A DNA stretch of 25,557 nucleotides from a virus (lineage: Duplodnaviria > Caudoviricetes): positions 1-25,557 of IMG/VR virus record IMGVR_UViG_3300023227_000027; one strand, 5' to 3'. The notes beneath the pieces were generated by a model. It worked only from the letters and a program-made list of their open reading frames with translations, was not told the origin of the DNA and did not search any database. A program made the position numbers and the translations under genes. This document shows, piece after piece, positions 4,971 to 20,631 of the stretch. Every line of letters begins with the position of its first letter. Position 1 is the first letter of the stretch.

Positions 4971-5987
4971 TTAAGCCGAGACGAGGATCGCACCGTTGGC
5001 CTTCGGGCTCTTGGCGCGCAGGCCAAAGATCGTATCGACGATGCCACGAGGGCCGCCGCCTTGATCTTCCAGCTTACGATGGCCGGGAGTGCGTTTAAAG
5101 GTGAGGCCCCACTTGGAGAGATCGAGGATGTAGCCCGAGCCGCGGCGCTGGGCCGTAGTCGTAGCCGCACCGGCGCCATCGAAGTAGCGCATCCGGGTGC
5201 AGGGCACCAGAACCACGCGACCGAAATCGCCCACCATGATATCGACCGTAGTCTGCAAGACTTCGCCCGCGGATTGGTTGATCCGGCGCACCACGGTGTT
5301 GCTCGCCTTGTCGGGCTGATAGATCGACATGAGGCTGATCTTCTGCTTGAGCTCGGAGCCCACTGGAGCGTGGAATTTACCCATGCCATTCGTGGCCTCG
5401 AAGACTTCTTGCGCGATGTTATTCACATCCGACTCCTCGAGAGCGGCGAGCGTGCCGGTGTAAACCTGCGCGGCCGCGGGGCGGAAACGCTCAGGCACGA
5501 TCTGCGCACCAGTAGGCGCGCCGGATTTGAGGAAACCACCGATCGAGCAGGTGCCGTATTTAGTGGCGCCACTCTGCGCTGTCCCTTCCACCTGGGAAAG
5601 TATGCGCTTTTCCACGCGGAACTTGATGCGAATCGTCGCCTTGCGCACGGCCTCGGCGTATTCGCCTTTGGAGATCGCCGGGTTTTCGCTCACGTTTTCC
5701 GCGAGATCGTCCACCATCGGCACTTCCCGCATCTTCATGACGTAGTTTTCGATGATCCCACGGTTTTCGGCCATGTTATCAAACGAAGTCACATCCTCGC
5801 CGGAGCCGACGCCGTTGATATCGTCGGTATCGCCATAGTCATCCACTTGCGTTTCAAACTTGGTATTGTGCACGGTGTCCTTGGGGAGCATCGTGAAGAG
5901 CGGCGTTTCCGAGCGCTCGATGTTGGTGATGTAGTCGGACAAATCCTGACGCTTGCCGACTTGGTTTGGTTCTTGTAATCCTGGCAT
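4971..5987 (-). CDS. Major capsid protein (DUF5309/SU10-like)
   Basis: 338 aa after the scaffold gene. N-terminal GKRQDLSDYITNI..ETP and C-terminal DFGRV..P...L...G motifs are characteristic of this family. Confidence 0.85.
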   Translation of the reverse strand: MPGLQEPNQVGKRQDLSDYITNIERSETPLFTMLPKDTVHNTKFETQVDDYGDTDDINGVGSGEDVTSFDNMAENRGIIENYVMKMREVPMVDDLAENVSENPAISKGEYAEAVRKATIRIKFRVEKRILSQVEGTAQSGATKYGTCSIGGFLKSGAPTGAQIVPERFRPAAAQVYTGTLAALEESDVNNIAQEVFEATNGMGKFHAPVGSELKQKISLMSIYQPDKASNTVVRRINQSAGEVLQTTVDIMVGDFGRVVLVPCTRMRYFDGAGAATTTAQRRGSGYILDLSKWGLTFKRTPGHRKLEDQGGGPRGIVDTIFGLRAKSPKANGAILVSA

Positions 5988-10923: not shown

Positions 10924-12942
10924 TCATGCGGCGTTTTCTCCGTAGTCTTCGGTCTCGGCGAGGATGAGGTATTTCACGAGATCGATAAAATCCTTGCAGG
11001 CGCCTTTCTGGCCGTCTTCCCCGGTCCAGTTCTGCAGCGCAAAGATTAAGTTTTTGCATTCCTTGGCGATATAGAGCCGCGGGCAATTCAAGCTATCGAT
11101 CGGCTGCCCCTCATCGTAGTCCAGGAGATCATTGATCAAGTGCACCCAATGCACCTTGGTATCATCGGCATAGGCGCCGCCGCTCGCGGGCACAAACTCC
11201 ATGCCGAGCTCATCGAGCTCCTCGAGCAGGGTGGTCGAGCCCTCGCGCTGCTGCGTGGGATGCGCGGCCGCGCGGCTGTCTAAGATCCGTGAATACACAT
11301 CCTCCCCCTGCTCAGGGCGGCGCTTGCGCTTCCTGATCGGCGTATATTCGGGGGTATCATCCTTATCCCACTGGAAAGGTTTATCATCGAGCACGACCTC
11401 CTCCCAATCGGTGCGACCTTCGAGCCGGTAGATCTCGCGCAGGTAGCGATTCAGGCCCCAGCCGAGCGCCGTTTGCGCGGGGCCTTTGGCGCCATCGTGC
11501 TTTTCGCCCGGCACCGCCCACTCGCCCATATCGCCCACGCCCGGCACGTAGCGGCCGGGGCAAGGGCTCTCGCGATAAATGTAATACGTTTTCCCGCGCG
11601 GCGTATCGAGCACGCGGCACCAGAGCATCGCCCAATTACGACCGCTGCACGGATCGACCACCATATAAGCCGTGCCCGCGCGCGGCATCTGCTCGCCGGC
11701 CATCGCGGCGTGCACGGCGGGATTGAATCGCGGAAATTTCCCCGAGATCGATTTCTCCGCGAGCCCGTAAAACCGCATGAGCTTATCCGCCGTAGGTGAA
11801 TCTTTATAGAGCGCCACGAGCTCGGGCGCATTGCCATACGCATTGTCGAAACTGTGAAAGAAGAACACGCCGGATCTCTCATCATCGATCGCCATCACCC
11901 GCGGCACCTTGCGAAATTCACGGCCTGGCGCCGGCGCGGGTTGGCTCGGGCGCCCCTCCGCAAGCGCGATCAAATCCTGCCCGGCGAGCGTGAGCTCGAG
12001 ATCGGGCTCCCCACCATCGGCCGGGCACATATACGCCGTGCCCTCGGCGGTCGTGGTCGCGCGGTCGAGAAACATTTTAACCGTGGGCGAGTAGCCACCG
12101 GCCGCGGTGCCGAGCTCGCCGACCGGGGTAAAGGTAATCAACAACCAGCCCGCACGAGTCGCCACGCGAGCCTTGAGCGTTTCGATCCAGGAGGCCGGCA
12201 CCAGCTCATCGCACCAGACCACATCCAACTCGCCGCCCTCGATCTTGGCCGCATCCTGCTCGTAGTAGCGAAACGATAAATCACTGCGATTCGGCCACAC
12301 GAGCTTCTCCTCCGAGAAACCCGTCTGCTGCTTGTAGGCAATGTAGGCCGGGTTGAGGCGGATACCCTTCTCCGTGCGCAGCTCGGCCGGAATATATTTA
12401 TAAATCAGCGGCTGCTGATAGTCGCGACTCATGCTCGCATCCTGGTGAAAAGCCCAGGCGCGCGCCCCGGCCTTAAACTGCAAGAGCTTGTTTACCCGAC
12501 TTGCGGCCCACTCGCTCTTGCCGCCCCGATTGCCGCCATTAAGCAGCAGGATCTTGATCGGCGCATCGCGCTTGAGCAACCGGCGCCGCACCGCCAGCGC
12601 CCAATCCTGCTTGGCCTGGAGCTCCTCGCGCTCGGTGATCGACTTCGCGGTGAGAATCATTTCCCGCGACGGATCCTCCCAGGGGAAACCGCACAACGCA
12701 TCGAGCACCTTCCACGATCCGGGCTCGAAACCATACCGCGCCGGATCGGCCTGCATCCGGTGAATCGTCTCCTCGCGCTCATTCAAAAACTCGAGCAAAG
12801 CCCCCACGCTATTCGCGCGCAGCCAAGCCTCATCCGGCAACGGTGCCACCGGGTGCGGAGTCACGCCCAGCAAGGCCCAAACGTCCGAGGACCAGGCTTC
12901 ACCCGGGGCCAACAAAGGAGCTGTTTGATCAGAGAGATTCAT
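10924..12942 (-). CDS. terL: Terminase large subunit
   Basis: Walker A GGNRGGKS, Walker B VVWCDE, coupling motif ITFTP, nuclease motifs MVVDP and C-terminal KDFID. Upstream of the portal gene. Confidence 0.9.
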   Translation of the reverse strand: MNLSDQTAPLLAPGEAWSSDVWALLGVTPHPVAPLPDEAWLRANSVGALLEFLNEREETIHRMQADPARYGFEPGSWKVLDALCGFPWEDPSREMILTAKSITEREELQAKQDWALAVRRRLLKRDAPIKILLLNGGNRGGKSEWAASRVNKLLQFKAGARAWAFHQDASMSRDYQQPLIYKYIPAELRTEKGIRLNPAYIAYKQQTGFSEEKLVWPNRSDLSFRYYEQDAAKIEGGELDVVWCDELVPASWIETLKARVATRAGWLLITFTPVGELGTAAGGYSPTVKMFLDRATTTAEGTAYMCPADGGEPDLELTLAGQDLIALAEGRPSQPAPAPGREFRKVPRVMAIDDERSGVFFFHSFDNAYGNAPELVALYKDSPTADKLMRFYGLAEKSISGKFPRFNPAVHAAMAGEQMPRAGTAYMVVDPCSGRNWAMLWCRVLDTPRGKTYYIYRESPCPGRYVPGVGDMGEWAVPGEKHDGAKGPAQTALGWGLNRYLREIYRLEGRTDWEEVVLDDKPFQWDKDDTPEYTPIRKRKRRPEQGEDVYSRILDSRAAAHPTQQREGSTTLLEELDELGMEFVPASGGAYADDTKVHWVHLINDLLDYDEGQPIDSLNCPRLYIAKECKNLIFALQNWTGEDGQKGACKDFIDLVKYLILAETEDYGENAA

Positions 12943-12984: not shown

Positions 12985-13332
12985 TCAGGAAACGATCCGA
13001 AAGGAATTATCGGGCAGATAGTTAGCCAGCACCGCCGCGACCTTGCGGCCCGCCAGCGTAGGCGAGACCGTGAGCCCACCCCACGGATCGCGCACCGTGC
13101 GCAGCTTGACCTTAACTCCATCATCGAGACACCGGATCGTGAGCTCGAAACCGGAAGGCTTCGCCGCGGGCATCTTGCAATGCGAAGTATCGGGCAGCAC
13201 ATCCGGGAGCGCGAGCCGCTCTATGCGCTTGCGCTCCTTGGCGGCGCGCATCTTAGCAAACCGAGCCGCGCGGCAGCAGTTCTTACTCCGGTGCAAAGAT
13301 TTGCGTCTTACCTGTGTGTTTAGGTGTGGCAT
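12985..13332 (-). CDS. Basic hypothetical protein upstream of terL
   Basis: 115-aa Arg/Lys-rich ORF starting 2 nt after the TGA at 13335. Confidence 0.55.
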   Translation of the reverse strand: MPHLNTQVRRKSLHRSKNCCRAARFAKMRAAKERKRIERLALPDVLPDTSHCKMPAAKPSGFELTIRCLDDGVKVKLRTVRDPWGGLTVSPTLAGRKVAAVLANYLPDNSFRIVS

Positions 13333-13334
13333 AT

Positions 13335-13532
13335 TCAGTTGTTCGATCCGCCTGAGCGTTTCTGTTTTTTTGGGCGGATGGCGCGGAGCGCCAAGACAGC
13401 CTCTTCGGTGATTCGCTGATCACCAGTCTCTCGGCGGCTGATGCTTTCGCGGGGCACACCCAAGAGGGCGGCAAGCCCGGCCTGCGTGAGGCCGAGCTTT
13501 TCGCGGGTCGCTTTATAGTCGTCGGGGCTCAC
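13335..13532 (-). CDS. XRE/Cro-type HTH protein (cassette 1)
   Basis: REKLGLTQAGLAALLGVPRESISRRETG is a classic HTH_3 signature. Its stop lies in phage DNA beyond the cassette boundary. Confidence 0.85.
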   Translation of the reverse strand: MSPDDYKATREKLGLTQAGLAALLGVPRESISRRETGDQRITEEAVLALRAIRPKKQKRSGGSNN

Positions 13533-13765
13533 AGGTCAATGTATCCGCTGTTGTAGCTGTCCGTCGCCGCGTCACCGCGATAGCCGACGTTGGACGCTGC
13601 CTGCTTCGCGGTGATCGCTCTCGCACCGCAAGCGGCACTGTTTACATCTCCATCGCTCTCATGTCGATCCACCCACTCGTCGCGCTCAATCTTGGATTTG
13701 AAGCGGTAGGTATTCATTTCGTTCGCGAATCCACGGGGGGATTTTTCGGCGTAATAGTGTTTCAT
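13529..13765 (-). CDS. Hypothetical protein (cassette 1), coupled to the HTH gene
   Basis: 78 aa from ATG 13765 after an A-rich leader, with a 4-nt overlap into the HTH gene. Confidence 0.65.
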   Translation of the reverse strand: MKHYYAEKSPRGFANEMNTYRFKSKIERDEWVDRHESDGDVNSAACGARAITAKQAASNVGYRGDAATDSYNSGYIDL

Positions 13766-13802
13766 TTTATATATTTGTTTTTGGTGAGGCTTGATTACCT
13801 CG

Positions 13803-13839
13803 ATGTGACATAGTGTGCATATGCTCACATTATGCGCAA
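13803..13839 (-). promoter_or_regulatory. Putative sigma70-type promoter with overlapping palindromic operator
   Basis: Minus-strand TTGCGC-18 nt-CACTAT in AT-rich DNA. Inverted repeat ATGTGA(13803)...TCACAT(13825) and a GCATATGC palindrome overlap it. Confidence 0.5.
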
Positions 13840-13889
13840 GCTTTATTTGTGATATTTCTCACTTTTATTTTGAGCACGTAAATGAGCGG

Positions 13890-13948
13890 ATCGAACCAGT
13901 CAGCCAGAGTTAACTCGCTTCGCTCGCACCTCAGCTGAGTTGTTCGTC
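13890..13948 (+). repeat. attC-like site 1 (59 bp)
   Basis: R'' ATCGAAC pairs with the cassette-start core GTTCGAT (13341; match extends to 11 bp). TCAGC/GCTGA arms, TCGCTTCGCTCG centre, R' GTTCGTC. Confidence 0.9.
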
Positions 13949-14215
13949 TCAGTAGTGGGTCTTTATGTTCTTCAGCATCGTCACGCGCCCTACAAATACT
14001 TTGCTTTCATCGTGCCTTCCGTCGGCTTCATGTAGCTGCGTGACCTCATCACTCGCCTCCTTTAGCGCCTCGGCCTCAGTGTCAAAATATGAAACATTTG
14101 GATAATACGGGTGATCTGAAACCATAACCCATTTAGACGAACCAGACACTTCACCCAACTCCTCACGGCGGGCTGGCACTTCGGCGGGTAATGTCTCGAT
14201 AGTTTCTTGTTTCAT
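13949..14215 (-). CDS. Hypothetical protein (cassette 2)
   Basis: 88 aa. GAAAGGA RBS and ATG lie inside attC2, and the stop abuts the core of attC1. Confidence 0.7.
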   Translation of the reverse strand: MKQETIETLPAEVPARREELGEVSGSSKWVMVSDHPYYPNVSYFDTEAEALKEASDEVTQLHEADGRHDESKVFVGRVTMLKNIKTHY

Positions 14216-14261
14216 TTTGATCCTTTCGGTGGTTCGTCGTCGGGTGAGTTAGATGTTCTAC
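14136..14261 (+). repeat. attC-like site 2 (126 bp)
   Basis: R'' GACGAAC is the reverse complement of GTTCGTC (13942). TCACCC/GGGTGA arms, R' GTTCTAC. Confidence 0.85.
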
Positions 14262-14497
14262 TGCCCGATTGCGGCCAGTTTTGCGCGTTGCTTGGCCCCT
14301 ACGTGTGGAACGTGACGTGATCGAGTCTGCTTCGTTAGCACCTTACCTAGTTTGCTGCGGTGATCGTGAGGGCTGACCTGCATGCCTGTTTTCTGCTTTG
14401 GGGTCGCGTCTTTCATGTCGACGGGAACGAAGTTGCGTATAAAGGCTGATGACTGTGTCATTTCTTCTTGAGTTAATTGTCCTGATGGAACGTGCAT
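14258..14497 (-). CDS. Hypothetical protein (cassette 3)
   Basis: 79 aa, with its TAG stop inside the core GTTCTAC. Confidence 0.6.
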   Translation of the reverse strand: MHVPSGQLTQEEMTQSSAFIRNFVPVDMKDATPKQKTGMQVSPHDHRSKLGKVLTKQTRSRHVPHVGAKQRAKLAAIGQ

Positions 14498-14526
14498 TAT
14501 TATATAGTTGAGGGTTTGATTACGGG

Positions 14527-15294
14527 TTAAATTTCGGAGGTAGAACCATCGTTTCGAGACAACCTCGCTTCGCTCGGCGTCTCACACGAACTGTTCTGCT
14601 TCAAAAATTCACGGCCCACGTATTCCGTGTAAGCGGGCGGTATTCCTAGCGAGAGTTCGCTGAGTGTTAAATTCCAATCGACCTGCATGTGTTCCTTTTG
14701 CACCGCGAGCGGGACGCGATACTCTCCCACGTTGCACACCGTCCGACCGTTGGGGCGGTTCGTCGATCCGGGGAAGATTCGGGCAGTGAATCGCTTGTGA
14801 TCGCACGGCACTGGATCAATCAGGAAACTCGCCTCAAACAGTCGATGTCGCCGCACCCTAATTCCGAACGATGTCCCGCACAGTTGGACGGGATCTTTCA
14901 GCGGAGCTCCTGGGACGTTCTCCATAACCCAATGCTTGCCGCTCGCAACCAGTGCTTGCCGGGTCGGCTCGATCATATCCGGCCATTTCGGTTTGTGCCC
15001 CGGTCGGCAATTCCGATAGACTGTGAATGTCTGGCACGGCGGACTTGCGTGAATCACGTCGTATTCGTGCCCGTGAGCTCGCAGATATTCCAACGCATCA
15101 CCTTGAATGAACGTGTGGGGATTGTTTGGCTGAGGGTTGATGTCCACCCCTACAATGTCGAATCCGGCTCGGCGGTAGCCTTCCCCTGCACAACCAGCCC
15201 CGCAAAACAGATCAAGCAGAACAAGACGGTGCTGACCAACCTGCTTGGCGCTAGGTGTCGGCGTTTCGTTTTCGATTATACCCTGTTTATTCAT
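14527..15294 (-). CDS. C5-cytosine DNA methyltransferase-like protein (cassette 4)
   Basis: Motif I LDLFCGAG, motif IV ASPPCQ, motif VI MENV and RxR (RRHR). Short phage-type enzyme with no cognate nuclease seen. Confidence 0.85.
   Translation of the reverse strand: MNKQGIIENETPTPSAKQVGQHRLVLLDLFCGAGCAGEGYRRAGFDIVGVDINPQPNNPHTFIQGDALEYLRAHGHEYDVIHASPPCQTFTVYRNCRPGHKPKWPDMIEPTRQALVASGKHWVMENVPGAPLKDPVQLCGTSFGIRVRRHRLFEASFLIDPVPCDHKRFTARIFPGSTNRPNGRTVCNVGEYRVPLAVQKEHMQVDWNLTLSELSLGIPPAYTEYVGREFLKQNSSCETPSEARLSRNDGSTSEI
14540..14599 (+). repeat. attC-like site 3 (60 bp), near-identical to site 15
   Basis: R'' GTAGAAC matches GTTCTAC (14255). GAGAC/GTCTC arms, R' GTTCTGC. Confidence 0.9.
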
Positions 15295-15348
15295 TCGTTT
15301 AACCCTGTTTGGTTGTTCGTCGCAGGTGGCAGACCTGAAGCGTTCTGT
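15216..15348 (+). repeat. attC-like site 4 (133 bp)
   Basis: R'' GCAGAAC matches GTTCTGC (14593). CTGACCAACCTGC/GCAGGTGGCAG arms, R' GTTCTGT. Confidence 0.85.
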
Positions 15349-15671
15349 CTCTTGAGTTCGATGATTTCACATGCCGCTTGGACACCTCGATTAAATCGGT
15401 AGTATTTATCGGAGCCTTGTTCGTATGGATTATCGCTGAATGAGCCATCCTTACACTTCCCTGTCTCGTATCCTTCGCGCTGCACGGGATCGGCTAGATC
15501 ACAGACTATCGCGTTGGGCATAATTTTATATTTATAGGTGGGAGGTGGCTTGATAGGTCGCTTGCTACGCATCGCGGCAGCATGTCCTGCTGCGTATCCT
15601 CTTCGATAATCGGATACAGAACCAGTCGCTAGTGTGGAACGCGATTGCTCGCAGTGTGTTTTATCGGGCAT
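15291..15671 (-). CDS. Hypothetical protein (cassette 5)
   Basis: 126 aa with YRRGYAAG and NPY..YYRFNRG motifs. Starts in attC5 and stops in attC4 with an ATGA overlap. Confidence 0.7.
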   Translation of the reverse strand: MPDKTHCEQSRSTLATGSVSDYRRGYAAGHAAAMRSKRPIKPPPTYKYKIMPNAIVCDLADPVQREGYETGKCKDGSFSDNPYEQGSDKYYRFNRGVQAACEIIELKRQNASGLPPATNNQTGLNE

Positions 15672-15738
15672 GGTATTTTATTCGGTTGAGGGTTTCGAGG
15701 CCGCGATCTCGTCGCGTCCCACATCTCGGTCGTTCGAC
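15616..15738 (+). repeat. attC-like site 5 (123-bp family)
   Basis: R'' ACAGAAC matches GTTCTGT (15342). TGTGGAACGCGA/TCGCGTCCCACA arms, R' GTTCGAC. Confidence 0.9.
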
Positions 15739-16061
15739 TGTGCGGGTTCATTGGTAATCGTTTCGGCCTGTCGAATGTATCGAAAAGCTGTTTCGTGCCG
15801 TGTTTCATTCGGCCATTTTTGAGATACGGCATAAATCAAATCATAGTATTTTGCCTCCAATTGTTCAATTTCGTCTGCGGCTTTTACCATGAGTTCATCG
15901 GTCGCGATTTCGTCCACAGTGGACATTTCTCCACAGTCGCCAGACCAGCGTCGCGGAGTTTGAATTGCGCCCTCGCGTAGTCGCTCAACTAGAGTCGAAC
16001 CCACAGCCAGAGCCAACGAGGCCGACTGTCCTTTTTCGGGTGATTGATTTGGTGTATTCAT
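15678..16061 (-). CDS. Hypothetical protein (cassette 6)
   Basis: 127 aa with a phage-type LVERLR...AADEIEQL motif. Starts in attC6 and stops in attC5. Confidence 0.7.
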   Translation of the reverse strand: MNTPNQSPEKGQSASLALAVGSTLVERLREGAIQTPRRWSGDCGEMSTVDEIATDELMVKAADEIEQLEAKYYDLIYAVSQKWPNETRHETAFRYIRQAETITNEPAQSNDRDVGRDEIAASKPSTE

Positions 16062-16106
16062 ATCAGGTATTACTTCGGGCCTCGTTGCTCATCAGAACCG
16101 TTAGGC
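15994..16106 (+). repeat. attC-like site 6 (113-bp family)
   Basis: R'' GTCGAAC matches GTTCGAC (15732). GAGCCAACGAGGCC/GGCCTCGTTGCTC arms with one extra base, canonical R' GTTAGGC. Confidence 0.9.
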
Positions 16107-16119
16107 AAAGAAAGATCCG

Positions 16120-16566
16120 ATGCGCAGCGAGTATTCAAAGGAAGAAGAGAATCGTTGGTATTCGCTCGGCGAGTCAGTCGCTCTTGCCATCCCATATCTC
16201 CCTTGGACAGCAGCTCCCTGGCTACGGCCAGCGACAACTGATGCCGATTTGCCAGCGCGCGTTCAGGCGTTTGAGCTGATCGAACGGCCCCACGTCGCGC
16301 GCATCGAAGCAGCCGTTGAGCAGTGGCTTCGAGACCAGAAGCCACCCGTATTAGAAGAAGAGCCCATGTTTTTCTTTTCATTACGATTTCAGGTTGTCGG
16401 TTCTTTACTGATGTCATTCCGTTTATTGGCTGATGCGCTGCCATATCCAGCCGACATTTCGGAGCGTGAGATCGCGCATCGTTGGCTGATCGATTGGTGG
16501 CGCGATAGTGGGGCCTTCCACGGAGTTGGCCACACCTCTGCGGAGCACGAAGGAGAGCCTAACTAG
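16120..16566 (+). CDS. Hypothetical protein in a canonically oriented cassette (cassette 7)
   Basis: ATG 13 nt after GTTAGGC, and the ORF ends ...EPN* across R'' GCCTAAC-TAG, the textbook cassette layout. Confidence 0.75.
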   Translation: MRSEYSKEEENRWYSLGESVALAIPYLPWTAAPWLRPATTDADLPARVQAFELIERPHVARIEAAVEQWLRDQKPPVLEEEPMFFFSLRFQVVGSLLMSFRLLADALPYPADISEREIAHRWLIDWWRDSGAFHGVGHTSAEHEGEPN

Positions 16567-16667
16567 ACGCCACAGCGCAACGCGGGCAGCTGTCCGATAT
16601 TCGCAAGCATCACCGCAATCATGATCTCTCCTCCTTTGGCCCGCGTGGCTCAGCTTTAACGTAGGAT
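16557..16667 (+). repeat. attC-like site 7 (111 bp)
   Basis: Canonical R'' GCCTAAC matches GTTAGGC (16100). ACGCGGGC/GCCCGCGT arms, atypical R' GTAGGAT. Confidence 0.85.
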
Positions 16668-17035
16668 TTTCGGGCAAAGAACCTCTTGATTTTCTCTGCA
16701 TCTTCCGGCGAAGAGGTTTGCAGCATGAGGGCTTTGAATTTCGCCATACTCAGCTTTTCTACATTTTTATCGTATATTTTTTGCACACGCACGAGAGCGG
16801 TCACTCGCCATCCCGTATGCGTTTCCTCGTTCACCAGTCCTGCGAATCCGTCGATTTTACTTTGCTTCCAGTGACGCGGTGGCTTCACCAACAATTGGCG
16901 CGGAGGCGGCACGATAATCGTGTATCTTACCGTGCCGTCATTAGTTCCAGCCGTGGTGCAGTTCGTGTCCGTGCAGTATGATATTAAGTAATCCCTGCTA
17001 GTCGCGGTCGCAGTTGTCTGATCGTATGTTCCCAT
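16619..17035 (-). CDS. Hypothetical protein (cassette 8)
   Basis: ORF fills the cassette. Likely ATG at 17035 (alternative TTG 17065). Stops inside attC7. Confidence 0.65.
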   Translation of the reverse strand: MGTYDQTTATATSRDYLISYCTDTNCTTAGTNDGTVRYTIIVPPPRQLLVKPPRHWKQSKIDGFAGLVNEETHTGWRVTALVRVQKIYDKNVEKLSMAKFKALMLQTSSPEDAEKIKRFFARKSYVKAEPRGPKEERS

Positions 17036-17042
17036 AGTATTT

Positions 17043-17147
17043 ATCCTACCAGCGATTCGAGACAAGCCGCCTCACGCCGCTGGTTTGCGCGAGAGCTTGG
17101 TGTTGTTTAAAGATTATTGGTTGGCTGTCTCACTCGGGTTGTTCGCG
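17043..17147 (+). repeat. attC-like site 8 (105 bp, TAC core variant)
   Basis: R'' ATCCTAC matches GTAGGAT (16661). GAGACAAGCC/GGCTGTCTC arms, R' GTTCGCG. Confidence 0.85.
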
Positions 17148-17425
17148 GAAAGAGCATCGCGGGCGCAGTTTTCGAGCAGCCCGGCGAGCCATGTCGTATT
17201 CTCCCCGAACCAAAGGCAGGCGCACGCGCCCTCATTAAGCATGGTGCCGCTCGGGAGTTTCTTCGGTGGTTGGACACCAGTTCCAGAGCACCGTTTGCAA
17301 TCGGGAGTTGGCGGGTAATGCAGTCGGTCTTCAGGGAAGCGGGCGCGAAGCTCCGCTAACAAATCCACAGAGCCAACGCCGTTGGCGTTTTCCTTGAGGG
17401 GCGGCGTTGTAGTGGCGTGGCTCAT
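17114..17425 (-). CDS. Cys-rich zinc-finger-like protein (cassette 9)
   Basis: CKRCSGTG...CAC motif. Likely ATG 17425 inside attC9, stop in attC8. Confidence 0.65.
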   Translation of the reverse strand: MSHATTTPPLKENANGVGSVDLLAELRARFPEDRLHYPPTPDCKRCSGTGVQPPKKLPSGTMLNEGACACLWFGENTTWLAGLLENCARDALSANNPSETANQ

Positions 17426-17438
17426 GTCAGGGTTCGCG
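17354..17438 (+). repeat. attC-like site 9 (85 bp)
   Basis: R'' CGCTAAC versus GTTCGCG (17141), 6/7 complementary. GAGCCAACGCC/GGCGTGGCTC arms, R' GTTCGCG. Confidence 0.85.
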
Positions 17439-18035
17439 CTATTCGAGAGCGCCGGACATTTGTTGCATAGTTTCATAGTCGCATCCTGTGTTTTCCATGT
17501 CCGATCGCCCCGAGAAGAATTGTCCCGCGCCAAGTATTGAGAAGGGGTCGCCATCATTCGGATTCCAGATTCCTTCCTCGATCATCCATGCCATGCGATA
17601 GAGTGCGCACAGCATTCGAGCGCCGTCCTTGCCGTATTTCCCCTCTGAGAATGATTTCTTTCTGGTGTAGCCATTCACGGTCAGCGACGCTTTCCATCTT
17701 ACGCACACCTGGCCTGTCCCTGGTCGGTCAAGACGCTTCGAGATTCCGCCAGTCATGCGCGTCATGCAGCCACGCCGGTAACGCCCCTTTGTAGAGTATA
17801 GGCGCTGTTTAGACTTTCTCGCCGGGCGTAAATCTAGTAGTCGTTTGAGTTCCGATTTGAGTTCTGAAATTTTACGCGCAGCATTTTTACTCCTCACGCC
17901 AGCACCTTTATCGTAGTAGTTTAATGCACATCTTACCCGATGCAGTTCGGAGGCAAGACGCGAACGAGGCGAGACAGCCAACCCGATTGGGCGCTGCTGG
18001 TTACTCGCGGGAGATTTAAGGTCGTCGGTAGTCAT
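17439..18035 (-). CDS. AP2-like DNA-binding domain protein (cassette 10)
   Basis: WKASLTVNG..KKSFSEGKYG..A...A..R resembles phage/bacterial AP2 domains. No HNH motif seen. Confidence 0.6.
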   Translation of the reverse strand: MTTDDLKSPASNQQRPIGLAVSPRSRLASELHRVRCALNYYDKGAGVRSKNAARKISELKSELKRLLDLRPARKSKQRLYSTKGRYRRGCMTRMTGGISKRLDRPGTGQVCVRWKASLTVNGYTRKKSFSEGKYGKDGARMLCALYRMAWMIEEGIWNPNDGDPFSILGAGQFFSGRSDMENTGCDYETMQQMSGALE

Positions 18036-18065
18036 TGGTCGGGTTGGCTGCTCTTGATGTTCGAC
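17959..18065 (+). repeat. attC-like site 10 (107 bp)
   Basis: R'' CGCGAAC matches GTTCGCG (17432). CAGCCAACCCGA/TCGGGTTGGCTG arms, R' GTTCGAC. Confidence 0.9.
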
Positions 18066-18358
18066 GAAAGAATTTCTAGGAACTCCCGAATCTTTGGCCT
18101 TAGATATTTATCGCGCACTCTTTCGACCACACAGATGTGCCCGTGGTGCTTTTCCTCCCATCGGCGGCAGTGGCTCCCGTATAGGTCTAGCAGGTCGTGA
18201 AAATTGTAGAGATTGATTTCGTCGGAAGCTTCAGCGTCCCACTTAAAAAACCAATACTGCTCCAGGTCTTCTTGGCTTTGCTTAGCTAAGTCATCATCGA
18301 GCGATTGAGCCAAAGATGTTATCGTGTTTTCTATATCTGTTTCGGTTACTTGTGTCAT
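18032..18358 (-). CDS. Hypothetical protein (cassette 11)
   Basis: 108 aa, stops in attC10 with an ATGA overlap to the next gene. Confidence 0.7.
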   Translation of the reverse strand: MTQVTETDIENTITSLAQSLDDDLAKQSQEDLEQYWFFKWDAEASDEINLYNFHDLLDLYGSHCRRWEEKHHGHICVVERVRDKYLRPKIREFLEILSSNIKSSQPDQ

Positions 18359-18382
18359 AGTGTTTTCGTTATGTCAGTTAGG

Positions 18383-18442
18383 GTCGAACGAGTCAGAGCT
18401 AGCAATTTCGCTCCGCTCAATCGCTAGTCTTTCATGTTCGGA
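18383..18442 (+). repeat. attC-like site 11 (60 bp)
   Basis: R'' GTCGAAC matches GTTCGAC (18059). CTAGC/GCTAG arms, R' GTTCGGA. Confidence 0.85.
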
Positions 18443-18624
18443 AGAAATAGCGGAGTGATGCACCCCTCTTCGCATCTGCGGCAATAGAGAGTGTATCCAC
18501 GAGGCTCTATCTTACTTGGATAAAGTTCCGCGAACTCGTGTTGTTTACAGGTTGGGCAAACCGGAATTTCCGAACCAGTCGCTGGTGTGGAACGCGATTG
18601 CTCGCTTTGGATTTTATCACTCAT
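18424..18624 (-). CDS. Small zinc-ribbon protein (cassette 12)
   Basis: CPTC...CRRC. Starts in attC12 and stops in attC11. Confidence 0.65.
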   Translation of the reverse strand: MSDKIQSEQSRSTPATGSEIPVCPTCKQHEFAELYPSKIEPRGYTLYCRRCEEGCITPLFLPNMKD

Positions 18625-18691
18625 GTTATTTTAATCGGTTGATTGCTTCGTGGCCGCGCACTCGTCGCGTCCCACATCTCTATTGTTCTGC
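18569..18691 (+). repeat. attC-like site 12 (123-bp family)
   Basis: R'' TCCGAAC matches GTTCGGA (18436). Same arms as site 5, R' GTTCTGC. Confidence 0.9.
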
Positions 18692-19032
18692 CACTTCGCA
18701 TTGAAGTCGTTCATCATCTGTTCATCGGCAAATCCCATCCATGTTTCACCATTCACGGTTGCGCCTCCGCTATGCCATTTCCCCGCCTTGCCGTGGATTG
18801 GCCACGCTTCGGGGCCGCAGTATTCACGACACCACTCCATGACGTTCTGCCAGCGTTGAGAGTTTATGCTGTCCGTGTATGCCTCCACCATCCAAGGCGT
18901 TCCATCCCACACTTTATGCGTGAGATCGTCCGTTGAGTCATAGGCCATGACGCGATGATAAAGAGCAGAACCAACAGCCAGAGCCCACGAGGCCGACTGT
19001 CCTTTTTCGGGTGTTTCATTTGGTGTATTCAT
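18631..19032 (-). CDS. Trp-rich hypothetical protein (cassette 13)
   Basis: Start reassigned to ATG 19032 by homology of its N-terminus (MNTPN..PEKGQSAS.ALAVGS) to the cassette 6 gene. Confidence 0.7.
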   Translation of the reverse strand: MNTPNETPEKGQSASWALAVGSALYHRVMAYDSTDDLTHKVWDGTPWMVEAYTDSINSQRWQNVMEWCREYCGPEAWPIHGKAGKWHSGGATVNGETWMGFADEQMMNDFNAKWQNNRDVGRDECAATKQSTD

Positions 19033-19077
19033 GTTCTTAGTTTTTCGGGCCTCGTTGCTCATCTGAGCTGGTTCTGC
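18965..19077 (+). repeat. attC-like site 13 (113-bp family)
   Basis: R'' GCAGAAC matches GTTCTGC (18685). Arms like site 6, R' GTTCTGC. Confidence 0.9.
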
Positions 19078-19370
19078 GATGATTCGGCCATCGGGGTTAT
19101 CGTGAGGGTTTGATCCCTTGCGCCGTCGTCGATCCATGTGAATCCGTCGAGCTTGCAGGCGTCCTTCACGCCCATGAGTCGGCCTAGTGTGTTCACTCCC
19201 GAGACTGTTACTCGGGCTAGTTCTAGATAGTCTGCGAGTTCCTCTAAGCATATAGGCAGTCTATCCTTGGGGACTTCCAGGAGGTCCATTACATGGTTGA
19301 TCGTATATCCGGGAGCAGAACCAGTCGCTGGTGTGGAACGCGATTGCTCGCCCTGTGTTTGAGTAGGCAT
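19059..19370 (-). CDS. Hypothetical protein (cassette 14)
   Basis: 103 aa, starts in attC14 and stops in attC13. Confidence 0.7.
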   Translation of the reverse strand: MPTQTQGEQSRSTPATGSAPGYTINHVMDLLEVPKDRLPICLEELADYLELARVTVSGVNTLGRLMGVKDACKLDGFTWIDDGARDQTLTITPMAESSQNQLR

Positions 19371-19437
19371 ATTATTTTAGGAGGTTGATTGTTTCGTGAG
19401 CGCGTTCTCGTCGCGTCCCACATCTCGGTCGTTCTAC
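19315..19437 (+). repeat. attC-like site 14 (123-bp family)
   Basis: R'' GCAGAAC matches GTTCTGC (19071). Same arms as sites 5 and 12, R' GTTCTAC. Confidence 0.9.
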
Positions 19438-19757
19438 CCACCGCCGTTGCTGTAGTCGTTGGCGATTATCTCAGGAATCTTGGCGCATAGCACCTCATCG
19501 CAATAGTTGCCGTCGTCTTGTTGATACGCCCTCTTGCCAATTTCCTTCCCGCACTTCTCAAGCAGTCCACGGTAGTAGTCCGTGTTTCGTTGATTCTGTG
19601 CGGCGGTGTCCATCCAGTTTGCGATTCGACGTGCTACTGATTCCGCGAGCACGGTATCCATTTCTATGTGCTTCGTCTCTTCGTCGCACCAACATTGAGC
19701 GGCCATTTGACGCGCTTCTTCCATCCAAGTTTCGGGAGTTGTTGTTGTTGTATTCAT
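19434..19757 (-). CDS. Hypothetical protein (cassette 15)
   Basis: 107 aa, with its TAG stop inside the core GTTCTAC. Confidence 0.7.
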   Translation of the reverse strand: MNTTTTTPETWMEEARQMAAQCWCDEETKHIEMDTVLAESVARRIANWMDTAAQNQRNTDYYRGLLEKCGKEIGKRAYQQDDGNYCDEVLCAKIPEIIANDYSNGGG

Positions 19758-19771
19758 TGTATTATTACGGG

Positions 19772-20314
19772 TTAAAATTCGGAGGTAGAACCATCGTTTC
19801 GAGACAACCTCGCTTCGCTCGGCGTCTCACACGAACTGTTCTCTCTAAGAGATTTGGGGTTCATCACGAGGACTGACTCGCAGTCCCATCCATAGAGGCT
19901 GTGTGGGCGAGCGAAGCGGGTTTCCTGTTGGCCTCTCTCGGTCAGATACACGGCGTCGATTCCGCTCATCTCTAACGGTTGGAACAACGGGAAACTCCAA
20001 TTAGGCATCAGTTCGACCCACGGGAGTTGATCCCTCGCGTCTTCCAGCGAGTCGATGACAAGCGCCACCCCCTCAAATTCAATATCGAAATGGGTTGATA
20101 GATCACCGAACGATTCAGCATCGCACCACTCACGCCATCCGTAATTGCACCCCACGGGGGATGCCCAGAATCCCCCACGAGGTTTCACTAAATGATCGTC
20201 CGTAATCGGTTTGAACTTCGACGGGTCGTATTGACGCGCACCGTAATGCCGCAAGGAGAGAACAAGTCGCTGCTGAGCAACCGCCGGAGCGGTGGAGTTT
20301 TCTTTTGTATTCAT
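19772..20314 (-). CDS. Hypothetical protein (cassette 16), possibly ADP-ribosyltransferase-like fold
   Basis: Start ATG 20314 inside attC16 (ATGA overlap). Motifs LRHYG, KPRGGFWASP and WDCESVLVMNP. The fold is an inference only. Confidence 0.65.
   Translation of the reverse strand: MNTKENSTAPAVAQQRLVLSLRHYGARQYDPSKFKPITDDHLVKPRGGFWASPVGCNYGWREWCDAESFGDLSTHFDIEFEGVALVIDSLEDARDQLPWVELMPNWSFPLFQPLEMSGIDAVYLTERGQQETRFARPHSLYGWDCESVLVMNPKSLRENSSCETPSEARLSRNDGSTSEF
19785..19844 (+). repeat. attC-like site 15 (60 bp), near-identical to site 3
   Basis: R'' GTAGAAC matches GTTCTAC (19431), R' GTTCTCT. 19764-19842 equals 14519-14597 with one mismatch. Confidence 0.9.
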
Positions 20315-20356
20315 AGTCTTGGGCGCTCCGTCTGTGGCAGAGCTTGAGCGTTCTGT
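20257..20356 (+). repeat. attC-like site 16 (100 bp), right end of the array
   Basis: R'' AGAGAAC matches GTTCTCT (19838). CGGAGCG/CGCTCCG inner arms, R' GTTCTGT running into phage DNA. Confidence 0.85.
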
Positions 20357-20631
20357 GATTCCATGCGCTGCCAGATCCGCCGGATCGCGGTTTGACCCAC
20401 CCCAAACTCCAATGCCAGGCACTTGCGCTCTTCGAGCGAGCCCGCAGTGGCCCGCAGGCGGGATTGGATCTGCGCCCGCTCATCGGGATCGAGCCGCTTC
20501 GAGTAAATGCCGGGCTCCTCGTGCAACGCGCCGCCGCCGGTGCGCATGAGGCCCGGACAGTAGCGAGCAATCAGCGACTGGCACCGGGTCGCCGTGCTGT
20601 AATCATCGGAGTGAGCGTAGGAGGTAATCAT
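20311..20631 (-). CDS. Phage protein with C-terminal HTH; its 3' end is the array insertion site
   Basis: KCLALEFGVGQTAIRRIW is HTH-like. The last 12 codons come from attC16. Confidence 0.65.
   Translation of the reverse strand: MITSYAHSDDYSTATRCQSLIARYCPGLMRTGGGALHEEPGIYSKRLDPDERAQIQSRLRATAGSLEERKCLALEFGVGQTAIRRIWQRMESQNAQALPQTERPRL

Follow-up and report, generated by a model that had tools for sequence, protein, structure and literature searches.

An Integrase-Less Phage Array of attC-Bounded Cassettes With Genes Antisense to Their Recombination Sites

Integrons are seen as bacterial devices in which promoterless genes, encoded on the top strand of their attC recombination sites, are read from a promoter beside attI. 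The window analyzed here (the whole stretch of 25,557 nucleotides of IMG/VR record IMGVR_UViG_3300023227_000027, a 25.6-kb viral contig of the Caudoviricetes) holds, from 13341 to 20356, an array comprised of a bare core and 16 imperfect hairpin sites of 59–133 nt, bounded by boxes of the form xxxxAAC ... GTTxxxx. With a probability of roughly 0.85, this is an integron-type array of 16 cassettes in a phage without an integrase, in which the genes lie on the bottom strand of the sites, are likely rearranged by an integrase from outside, and are likely read with the phage genes. New here are the crossing of cassette junctions in a fixed AAC phase, Opitutales homologues of cassettes whose similarity begins at G|TT, related phages that bear IntI, and a first cassette that is polymorphic in the population.

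Recombination Sites and Their Chain of Boxes

The array is made up of the following elements, with boxes written as left / right and scores in bits referring to the covariance model described below.

13341–13347, plus: bare core GTTCGAT, attI-like or half of a secondary site, at the left array end, just upstream of the ATG at 13332
13890–13948, plus: attC site 1, 59 nt, ATCGAAC / GTTCGTC, 7.6 bits
14136–14238, plus: attC site 2, 103 nt, GACGAAC / GTTCGTC, 9.5 bits
14540–14599, plus: attC site 3, 60 nt, GTAGAAC / GTTCTGC, missed by the model
15216–15348, plus: attC site 4, 133 nt, GCAGAAC / GTTCTGT, 17.7 bits
15616–15738, plus: attC site 5, 123 nt, family D1, 23.9 bits
15994–16106, plus: attC site 6, 113 nt, GTCGAAC / GTTAGGC, 21.9 bits
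16557–16667, plus: attC site 7, 111 nt, GCCTAAC / GTAGGAT (right box degenerate), best model match, 33 bits, E = 7.8e-7
17043–17147, plus: attC site 8, 105 nt, ATCCTAC (degenerate) / GTTCGCG, arms assigned by eye, missed by the model
17354–17438, plus: attC site 9, 85 nt, CGCTAAC / GTTCGCG, extra A in the left L box, 24.3 bits
17959–18065, plus: attC site 10, 107 nt, perfect 12-nt arms, 15 bits
18383–18442, plus: attC site 11, 60 nt, missed by the model
18569–18691, plus: attC site 12, 123 nt, family D1, 29.1 bits
18965–19077, plus: attC site 13, 113 nt, 13.5 bits
19315–19437, plus: attC site 14, 123 nt, family D1, 28.9 bits
19785–19844, plus: attC site 15, 60 nt, missed by the model
20257–20356, plus: attC site 16, 100 nt, right array end, 20.1 bits

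The AAC and GTT triplets are exact in 14 of the 16 sites, and the hairpin lengths fall in the attC range of 57–141 bp. Right-box position 4 is C in 13 sites and the consensus RYYYAAC / GTTRRRY is only partly followed; GTTC is present in canonical Opitutales sites as well. L boxes were found in 13 of 14 aligned sites, site 2 being without a clear one, and those of sites 7 and 8 were assigned by eye. Ten hairpins constrained to AAC/GTT ends and reaching −11 kcal/mol or lower occur in the 7.1-kb array, compared with one in the remaining 18.4 kb and a mean of 0.85 in shuffled versions of the array (n = 20). Several sequence families can be distinguished among the sites, including D1 (sites 5, 12, and 14), and paralogous sites are 77–98% identical. 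The bare core and the left box of site 1 are perfectly reverse-complementary, and no hairpin lies to the left of the core. At the opposite end, site 16 overlaps the last 13 codons of a backbone gene (20311–20631), and no further ACAGAAC box was found to its right.

The right box of one site and the left box of the next are reverse complements at 7/7 positions in 14 of 16 pairs, at 6/7 in another pair, and at 5/7 in the last; within single sites, the two boxes match at 7/7 in just 2 of 16. Such complementarity between neighbors is a signature of integron cassettes, since the outer part of a cassette's own right box forms the beginning of that cassette; it is perfect, for instance, between the right box of site 1 and the left box of site 2, and between the degenerate boxes of sites 7 and 8. 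In a control of 79 terminase-related viral loci (158 locus-strands, 1.9 Mb, both strands), box chains never exceeded two links, and the same detector returned 16 and 10 links beside bona fide IntI genes in two Opitutales genomes.

A covariance model (R2) was built only from 27 attC sites beside above-cut-off IntI in two Opitutales chromosomal integrons, where open reading frames (ORFs) lie on the top strand in 15 of 16 and 8 of 10 cassettes. Within the window, the model matches 12 of the 16 sites, all on the plus strand, at full length and with the same boundaries (eight with E < 0.01), and gives nothing better than E = 0.78 outside the array. Site 7 also resembles attC repeats of like orientation in four Opitutales genomes (G272, G381, G104, and G387; 73–78% identity); in G272, whose array was examined, the cassette ORFs are canonical.

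Sites 3 and 15 are near-identical (98.7% over 79 nt, 19764–19842), and their likeness extends 27 nt past the left box (14514–14597 vs. 19759–19842, 96–99%). Since the box link between sites 2 and 3 is one of the two imperfect ones, this likeness suggests that a copy of site 15 recently replaced the original site 3. The hairpins of the array could alternatively be regulatory or hotspot elements (for mRNA processing, terminator-like, or of the T4 promoter-stem-loop kind) that only resemble attC, with genes shuffled by homologous recombination alone. The lack of an integrase in the phage would suit this explanation, as would the flank shared by sites 3 and 15, the high identity of paralogous sites, and the predicted folds of the sites as RNA (−24 to −40 kcal/mol), in which the start codon is mostly unpaired. 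We consider it quite improbable nonetheless, given the sequence-level match to bona fide host attC sites, the place of site 7 in a host chromosomal attC family, the cassette-circle signature in 14 of 16 pairs, and the identical architecture beside true IntI genes in related phages (see below). Terminators are not enriched (a scan was at chance, 12 vs. 9.1 expected), and a regulatory role could coexist with attC function rather than replace it.

Several side observations concern the same repeats. An inverted copy (16 nt, 88–94% complementary) of AACCTCGCTTCGCTCG, the center of sites 1, 3, and 15, occurs at 19907–19923, inside the gene at 19772–20314, and may form a predicted long-range hairpin with site 15 (−20.7 kcal/mol). 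An extra AAC...GTT hairpin at 16232–16321 (CGACAAC / GTTGAGC, −17.5 kcal/mol) lies in the plus-strand ORF of cassette 7 and is unsupported by the attC model. Six further pattern matches in metagenome contigs were dismissed as chance occurrences inside unrelated genes, and GGTTCGA motifs, which hinted at pieces of tRNA, were likewise dismissed when ARAGORN returned no tRNA.

Mobility of the Cassettes

The phage was found in salt-lake metagenomes, in DNA runs only. A near-identical record (G001; 41,443 bp, rated 98% complete) lacks a 601-bp segment that is present in the window, where it reaches from the bare core as far as the G in site 1 and has nine shared flanking bases. A contig of run X9 joins 13336 to 13938, and the depth of the segment is about one third that of its flanks in both X8 and X9; forms with and without the first cassette therefore coexist. 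Other contigs share exactly the stretch from 15216 to 15342–15344 (site 4) and then diverge. Depth at 15203–15469 rises to 35 in X8 (10–13 in the flanks) and to 18 in X9 (10 in the flanks), which, along with the loose ends at 15216 and 15342–15344, places the same attC in other, more abundant genomes of the lake. Further contig breaks fall at 13911/13944, 16549/16596, and 20353.

When the whole array was compared with 401 Opitutales genomes by blastn, six matched, and two cassettes have Opitutales homologues (85% and 76–78% DNA identity). Genome G008 shares the methyltransferase cassette: the two copies are 85% identical over 648 nt, and their similarity sets in precisely at G 14593, in the right box of site 3. 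In G008 the cassette is flanked by attC-like sites that have the same GTTCTGC and GCAGAAC boxes. For the gene of cassette 9, a homologue occurs in the Opitutaceae genome G002 (75% amino acid identity, 60/80, E = 4e-45); there it forms the first cassette next to an IntI-like gene, and similarity at the DNA level begins at the core G|TT. A tblastn search with all cassette proteins against all loci compared returned only these two shared cassettes. As judged from sequence comparison, the homology breaks and the natural presence or absence of a cassette at G|TT lend indirect support to recombination of the folded bottom strand by an integron integrase.

Polarity of the Sites

Extrahelical bases on the AAC-bearing arm mark the top strand of attC, according to the available text of Nivina et al. 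(PMC5027507). In the predicted folds of the phage sites, of the 13 that could be evaluated, 10 have a plus-strand AAC arm that is longer by 1–2 nt, three have arms of equal length, and none has a shorter one; an extra A recurs (CCAACG vs. CC-ACG). The strand matched by the covariance model, the length of the AAC arm, and the orientation of site 7 identify the plus strand as the attC top strand, and 15 of the 16 cassettes consequently code on the bottom strand. The sequence-only reading had proposed plus polarity from the ends of the array, with a bare core on the left and a full hairpin on the right; both ends are as it described (13341–13347, and site 16 at 20257–20356), and the polarity is now also backed by the bounds of the 601-bp cassette, the relatives of site 7, and the placement of the core relative to intI in related loci.

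If polarity were instead minus, the array would be an ordinary cluster of attC sites lacking an integrase (CALIN), with sense genes, each followed by its own attC, and with starts in the site of the previous cassette. The box-complementarity signature is symmetric and gives no polarity, and canonical ORFs often end in their own attC, as these would. Such an arrangement is nevertheless exceedingly improbable. The covariance model matches only the plus strand of the array, and also the strand opposite the ORFs in four related loci (L128, L210, L211, and L200); it is the AAC arm of the plus strand that carries the extra bases; of the two boxes of site 1, it is the right one that delimits the polymorphic cassette; the similarity to G008 and G002 sets in at the G|TT of the right box; and the bare core is on the intI side in G002, L206, and L210, adjoining the 5' end of intI in the bacterial locus of G002. 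The 16 sites are thus integron attC sites, and their plus polarity is backed by five independent lines (extra bases, bounds of the polymorphic cassette, kinship of site 7, strand of the model matches, and position of the core beside intI).

Genes That Begin and End in Recombination Sites

Minus-strand ORFs are carried by 15 of the 16 cassettes, as had been noticed from the sequence, and only cassette 7 is canonical. The cassettes and their genes are as follows (aa, amino acids).

13343–13942: cassette 1, polymorphic, with an AT-rich promoter/operator-like stretch at ~13770–13890
13335–13532, minus: cassette 1, HTH_3 regulator (Xre-type, 65 aa; HTH_3 E = 1.1e-9)
13529–13765, minus: cassette 1, second ORF, 78 aa (78–99 aa), upstream of the HTH gene
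13949–14215, minus: cassette 2, 88 aa, start in site 2, own stop 7 nt from the G of site 1
14258–14497, minus: cassette 3, 79 aa
14527–15294, minus: cassette 4, C5 cytosine DNA methyltransferase, 255 aa (PF00145, E = 0.0012; blastn matches to mycobacteriophage methyltransferases)
15291–15671, minus: cassette 5, 126 aa, leader EQSRSTLATGS
15678–16061, minus: cassette 6, 127 aa, leader PEKGQSASLALAVGS, tail NDRDVGRDE...
16120–16566, plus: cassette 7, putative gene, 148 aa, stop overlapping the left box of site 7
16619–17035, minus: cassette 8, 138 aa from the ATG at 17035
17114–17425, minus: cassette 9, 103 aa, homologue in the G002 integron
17439–18035, minus: cassette 10, 198 aa, weak AP2 match (PF00847, E = 5.8e-5, below the curated cut-off)
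18032–18358, minus: cassette 11, 108 aa
18424–18624, minus: cassette 12, 66 aa, Cys-rich
18631–19032, minus: cassette 13, 133 aa, blastn match to a hypothetical gene of Halomonas phage QHHSV-1
19059–19370, minus: cassette 14, 103 aa
19434–19757, minus: cassette 15, 107 aa, stop TAG inside the right box of site 14
19772–20314, minus: cassette 16, 180 aa, tail read from site 15

The coding strand is demonstrated for the two genes that have homologues. Mismatches at the three codon positions of the minus frame number 8/11/41 for cassette 9 against G002 and 16/10/76 for the methyltransferase against G008, and this bias toward third positions indicates that both are under selection as minus-strand genes. 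Searches of Pfam and PHROGs left most cassette proteins without a name, the methyltransferase being the only recognized cargo. Phage AP2 domains, of which cassette 10 may hold one, usually accompany proteins of the homing-endonuclease type.

Ten starts had been placed by the sequence-only reading within the attC of the cassette concerned, and all ten do lie there; the four sites of 59–60 nt hold no start, also as described. In the genes with site-internal starts, the first 6 to 26 codons belong to the gene's own attC. For the methyltransferase, the start must lie in attC, because the codons for strand beta-1 of motif I come from the left box and arm of site 4. attC may also act as a module for translation initiation, as the sequence-only reading proposed: the start codon would occupy the center of the predicted RNA hairpin, where its mean probability of being unpaired is computed to be 0.61–0.86 in eight of ten sites and 0.35–0.36 in sites 9 and 10.

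The 3' ends of the genes are also encoded by sites, a point absent from the earlier reading. Every ORF that spans a junction (12 of 12) crosses G|TT between bases 2 and 3 of an AAC codon (Asn), or of TAC at the degenerate site 7, and ends 2 to 22 codons further on, within the site of its neighbor, which supplies the tail and the stop; genes that do not cross terminate at the box or immediately next to it. The AAC phase was likewise observed in L210 (5/5), G008 (3/3), and G002 (5/5), and L211 shows it at two of its four putative sites. Since the 3' end of a gene crosses into the attC of its neighbor, the same cassette has different C-terminal tails in different arrays. The methyltransferase of cassette 4, which starts in site 4 and reads a 22-aa tail from site 3, provides the proof of a borrowed tail: the enzyme is 90.8% identical in G008, where it ends in KQND*, and in the phage it ends in KQNSSCETPSEARLSRNDGSTSEI*. 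A further idea, in which closure of the AAC frame would be a designed property of all sites, was set aside as weak, given that 16 of 17 close within 23 codons and other frames do so nearly as often.

The N-terminal peptides that had been noticed to recur among the cassette genes are as described and are encoded by attC, with three leader families found on unrelated proteins. These peptides could themselves be the functional signal, such as a targeting or packaging tag, to which the DNA hairpins would be secondary, and the endings ...VGS and ...TGS, which occur in G002 as well, along with the spread of the leaders over unrelated proteins, are what such a tag would predict. Conservation at the DNA level, however, includes non-coding copies, with the right half of site 14 being intergenic, and the GS ending is the left box GAACC read backwards. 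Furthermore, the methyltransferase leader differs completely between the phage and G008 while the enzyme is 91% identical, and C-terminal tails are equally dependent on context. A peptide tag is therefore very improbable.

Cassette 1 resembles a self-regulated module of two genes, possibly of the toxin-antitoxin-like kind. An imperfect palindrome, GTGTGCATATGCTCAC, lies at ~13813–13828 within its AT-rich stretch. Integron cassettes that bring their own promoter, and toxin-antitoxin cassettes, are described in PMC8876359.

Related Loci and Integrase-Bearing Phages

Antisense cassettes had been proposed as a phage-associated class, and this view is borne out by the prophage of G008, the phages G405, G406, and L206, and the array adjacent to IntI in G002. 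The array of G008 belongs to a lambda-like prophage unrelated to the window phage, in which it lies between the terminase and portal genes and is co-directional with them. The IntI-like gene of G002 reaches 224.5 bits with TIGR02249, against a cut-off of 265 and ~130 for the next-best families, and sits between the dcw cluster, on the mraZ side, and the cassettes (locus L128, i.e., G002:C20, 9953–17979). Beyond the cassettes come genes for an AAA_22 protein and a phrog_310 transposase of 900 aa; the whole set shares one strand, and its layout recalls Tn402, where an integron is combined with MuA/MuB-like transposition genes. IntI scores above cut-off in 60 of 301 Opitutales genomes, and loci with low-scoring IntI fragments (G141, G286, G192, and G065) showed nothing clear.

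A search of viral contigs with the G002 integrase yielded 13 loci. In L206, an integrase 81% identical to that of G002 (233 bits, below the cut-off) is followed by genes for HNH, small and large terminase, portal, and protease, and the core region is conserved with G002 up to CACTTG|TT, after which a different cassette begins. G405 (which is L210; 39,440 bp, terminal repeats, 100% complete) and G406 each encode IntI at 354 bits, above the cut-off of 265. Both have four-link chains on the 5' side of intI, with ORFs co-directional with intI, start codons inside 4 of 5 sites, and covariance-model matches on the opposite strand. Within 1–5100 of L210, the array stands at the very start of the linear map, and intI is directly upstream of the packaging genes. 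Because their box sequences are identical, L210, L212, and L217 are probably one phage type and not three cases. The large terminase (TerL), portal, and capsid proteins of the integrase-bearing phages are distant homologues of those of the window (23–41% identity). As a side observation, the differing last cassettes of G405 and G406 share a core-encoded tail, PNKNYPD*.

Phage Genome Context

Recognizable genes of the window all lie on the minus strand, and include the following.

21.8–24.1 kb, minus: replication initiator and DnaB
10924–12942, minus: large terminase
Putative portal protein, 733 aa, without a family match, 24–26% alignment to the frame after TerL in related phages
4971–5987, minus: major capsid protein

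The G+C content drops from ~0.60 to 0.50–0.55 between 13.5 and 20 kb. Throughout the window, gene starts are preceded by A-rich sequence without a Shine-Dalgarno motif, and a promoter scan was at chance (5 vs. 5.3 expected). An Rfam scan of the window at gathering thresholds gave 0 matches. Five proteins of the window open with MNT(P/T/K), one of them in the tail-side module (854–2497).

Proposed Mechanism and Points Against It

An integrase acting in trans may rearrange the cassettes, supplied either by the Opitutales host or by a co-infecting relative with IntI just downstream of its own array. The fixed phase of the junctions, together with a start codon in the loop, would keep shuffled genes translatable, and the cargo may serve accessory or anti-defense functions of the phage. 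It is plausible that the usual divergence of intI and its cassettes is ill-suited to a phage genome read in one direction, and that flipped ORFs preserve the geometry of recombination and bring everything into one direction. A broader claim is that phages of Verrucomicrobia have an integron kind of their own, with flipped genes, a co-directional arrangement of array, integrase, and packaging genes, a grammar (start in the attC loop, exit through an Asn codon at the crossover, tail and stop from the next site) that would render any order of cassettes translatable, and C-termini rewritten at each rearrangement, the window phage being a member that lacks an integrase and borrows the enzyme; we give this claim slightly better than even odds.

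Several points weigh against a phage array that is mobilized by an integrase and read with the phage genes. Neither the window nor the 98%-complete G001 has a match to PF00589 or TIGR02249 that would denote a tyrosine recombinase or integrase, so recombination in this phage would rest on an enzyme from elsewhere. Transcription, judged from gene orientation, would run from the replication module through the array to the packaging genes. Regarding the sites, degenerate boxes occur in sites 7 and 8, right boxes follow GTTC(G/T)nn as their consensus and not the textbook GTTRRRY, and sites 3, 8, 11, and 15 escape the covariance model. Pattern scans for three site families in viral contigs, and for one in metagenome contigs, found only this phage, and the three closest prophage relatives (Opitutaceae, terminase 55–62% identical) have no array or repeat families upstream of the terminase. 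The flank shared by sites 3 and 15 points, on sequence grounds, to homologous recombination being also at work, and the 601-bp polymorphism could have arisen by microhomology deletion, given the nine shared end bases. Only ~9 of the 12 junction-phase cases in the window are independent, given the paralogous sites. The ORF of cassette 7 has no family or homologue in the searches made, and in L210 the chain beside attI does not close (GCCTAAC vs. the expected AGCCAAC).

Comparison With Known Systems

The array shares with bacterial integron arrays and CALINs the attC hairpins, the AAC/GTT and L boxes, the extra bases on the AAC arm, and the G|TT bounds; in both, a cassette's first bases are complementary to its own left box, and a bare core opens the array. 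In sequence, the sites agree with canonical attC of Opitutales. The array differs in its location in a phage, in the bottom-strand ORFs of 15 of 16 cassettes, in starts that lie in the cassette's own attC, in AAC-phase crossing with a borrowed tail and stop, and in a right box that is mostly GTTC and not GTTR. With 16 sites and no integrase in 41 kb, it falls under the definition of a CALIN (at least two serial attC sites with no intI nearby); the combination of intI and attI that defines a complete integron is absent from the window and present in G405 and G406, as well as, with integrases that score below the cut-off, in L206 and G002. Reverse-oriented cassettes with their own promoter, such as toxin-antitoxin cassettes, occur in chromosomal integrons as self-contained exceptions in sense arrays. 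Cassette 1 looks alike, but in the phage the whole array is antisense, with genes running head to tail across the junctions. The mobile regulatory cassettes of T4-type phages, in which a promoter and stem-loop at gene boundaries allow genes to be shuffled by homologous recombination, likewise combine stem-loop repeats at gene boundaries with a hyperplastic region, modular exchange, and expression signals; unlike these, the repeats of the phage array are attC sites with the geometry of integron cassettes.

CALINs, as clusters of attC sites without an integrase, occur in virulent and temperate phages with methyltransferase cassettes among their cargo, and five of six tested phage attC sites recombined with IntI1 (Qi et al., 2023, PMC9892861). 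In the portions of that paper available, its 17 CALINs have a minimum of two attC sites each and cassettes oriented as in bacteria, and neither an antisense design of the ORFs, nor a junction phase, nor a comparable phage lineage with an integrase is mentioned. In the inverted integrase arrangement of Treponema, as far as the accessible text goes, integrase and cassette genes are also transcribed one way, with intI transcribed toward attI, upstream of canonical cassettes (PMC3607928, PMC4889954). The loci considered here are unlike it, in that the 5' end of intI faces the core in G002, L206, G405, and G406, the cassette ORFs are reversed, and the array is read toward intI. The literature searched contained no account of cassette arrays with antisense genes, which is not proof of their absence.

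Implications for Integrons and Phages

Integron recombination machinery appears to be re-used by phages with the genes reversed and coding through the sites in a fixed phase. If this is true, the chemistry of recombination does not dictate the orientation of cassettes, and attC sequence would be under the combined influence of DNA folding and of coding for the termini and start regions of proteins. Annotation pipelines that assume sense cassettes will misread antisense arrays. The fixed reading phase likely enables accessory genes to be swapped without breaking them, and, on the same condition, some phages would own a site-specific shuffling platform for accessory (probably anti-defense) genes, through which they exchange cassettes with elements of their hosts.

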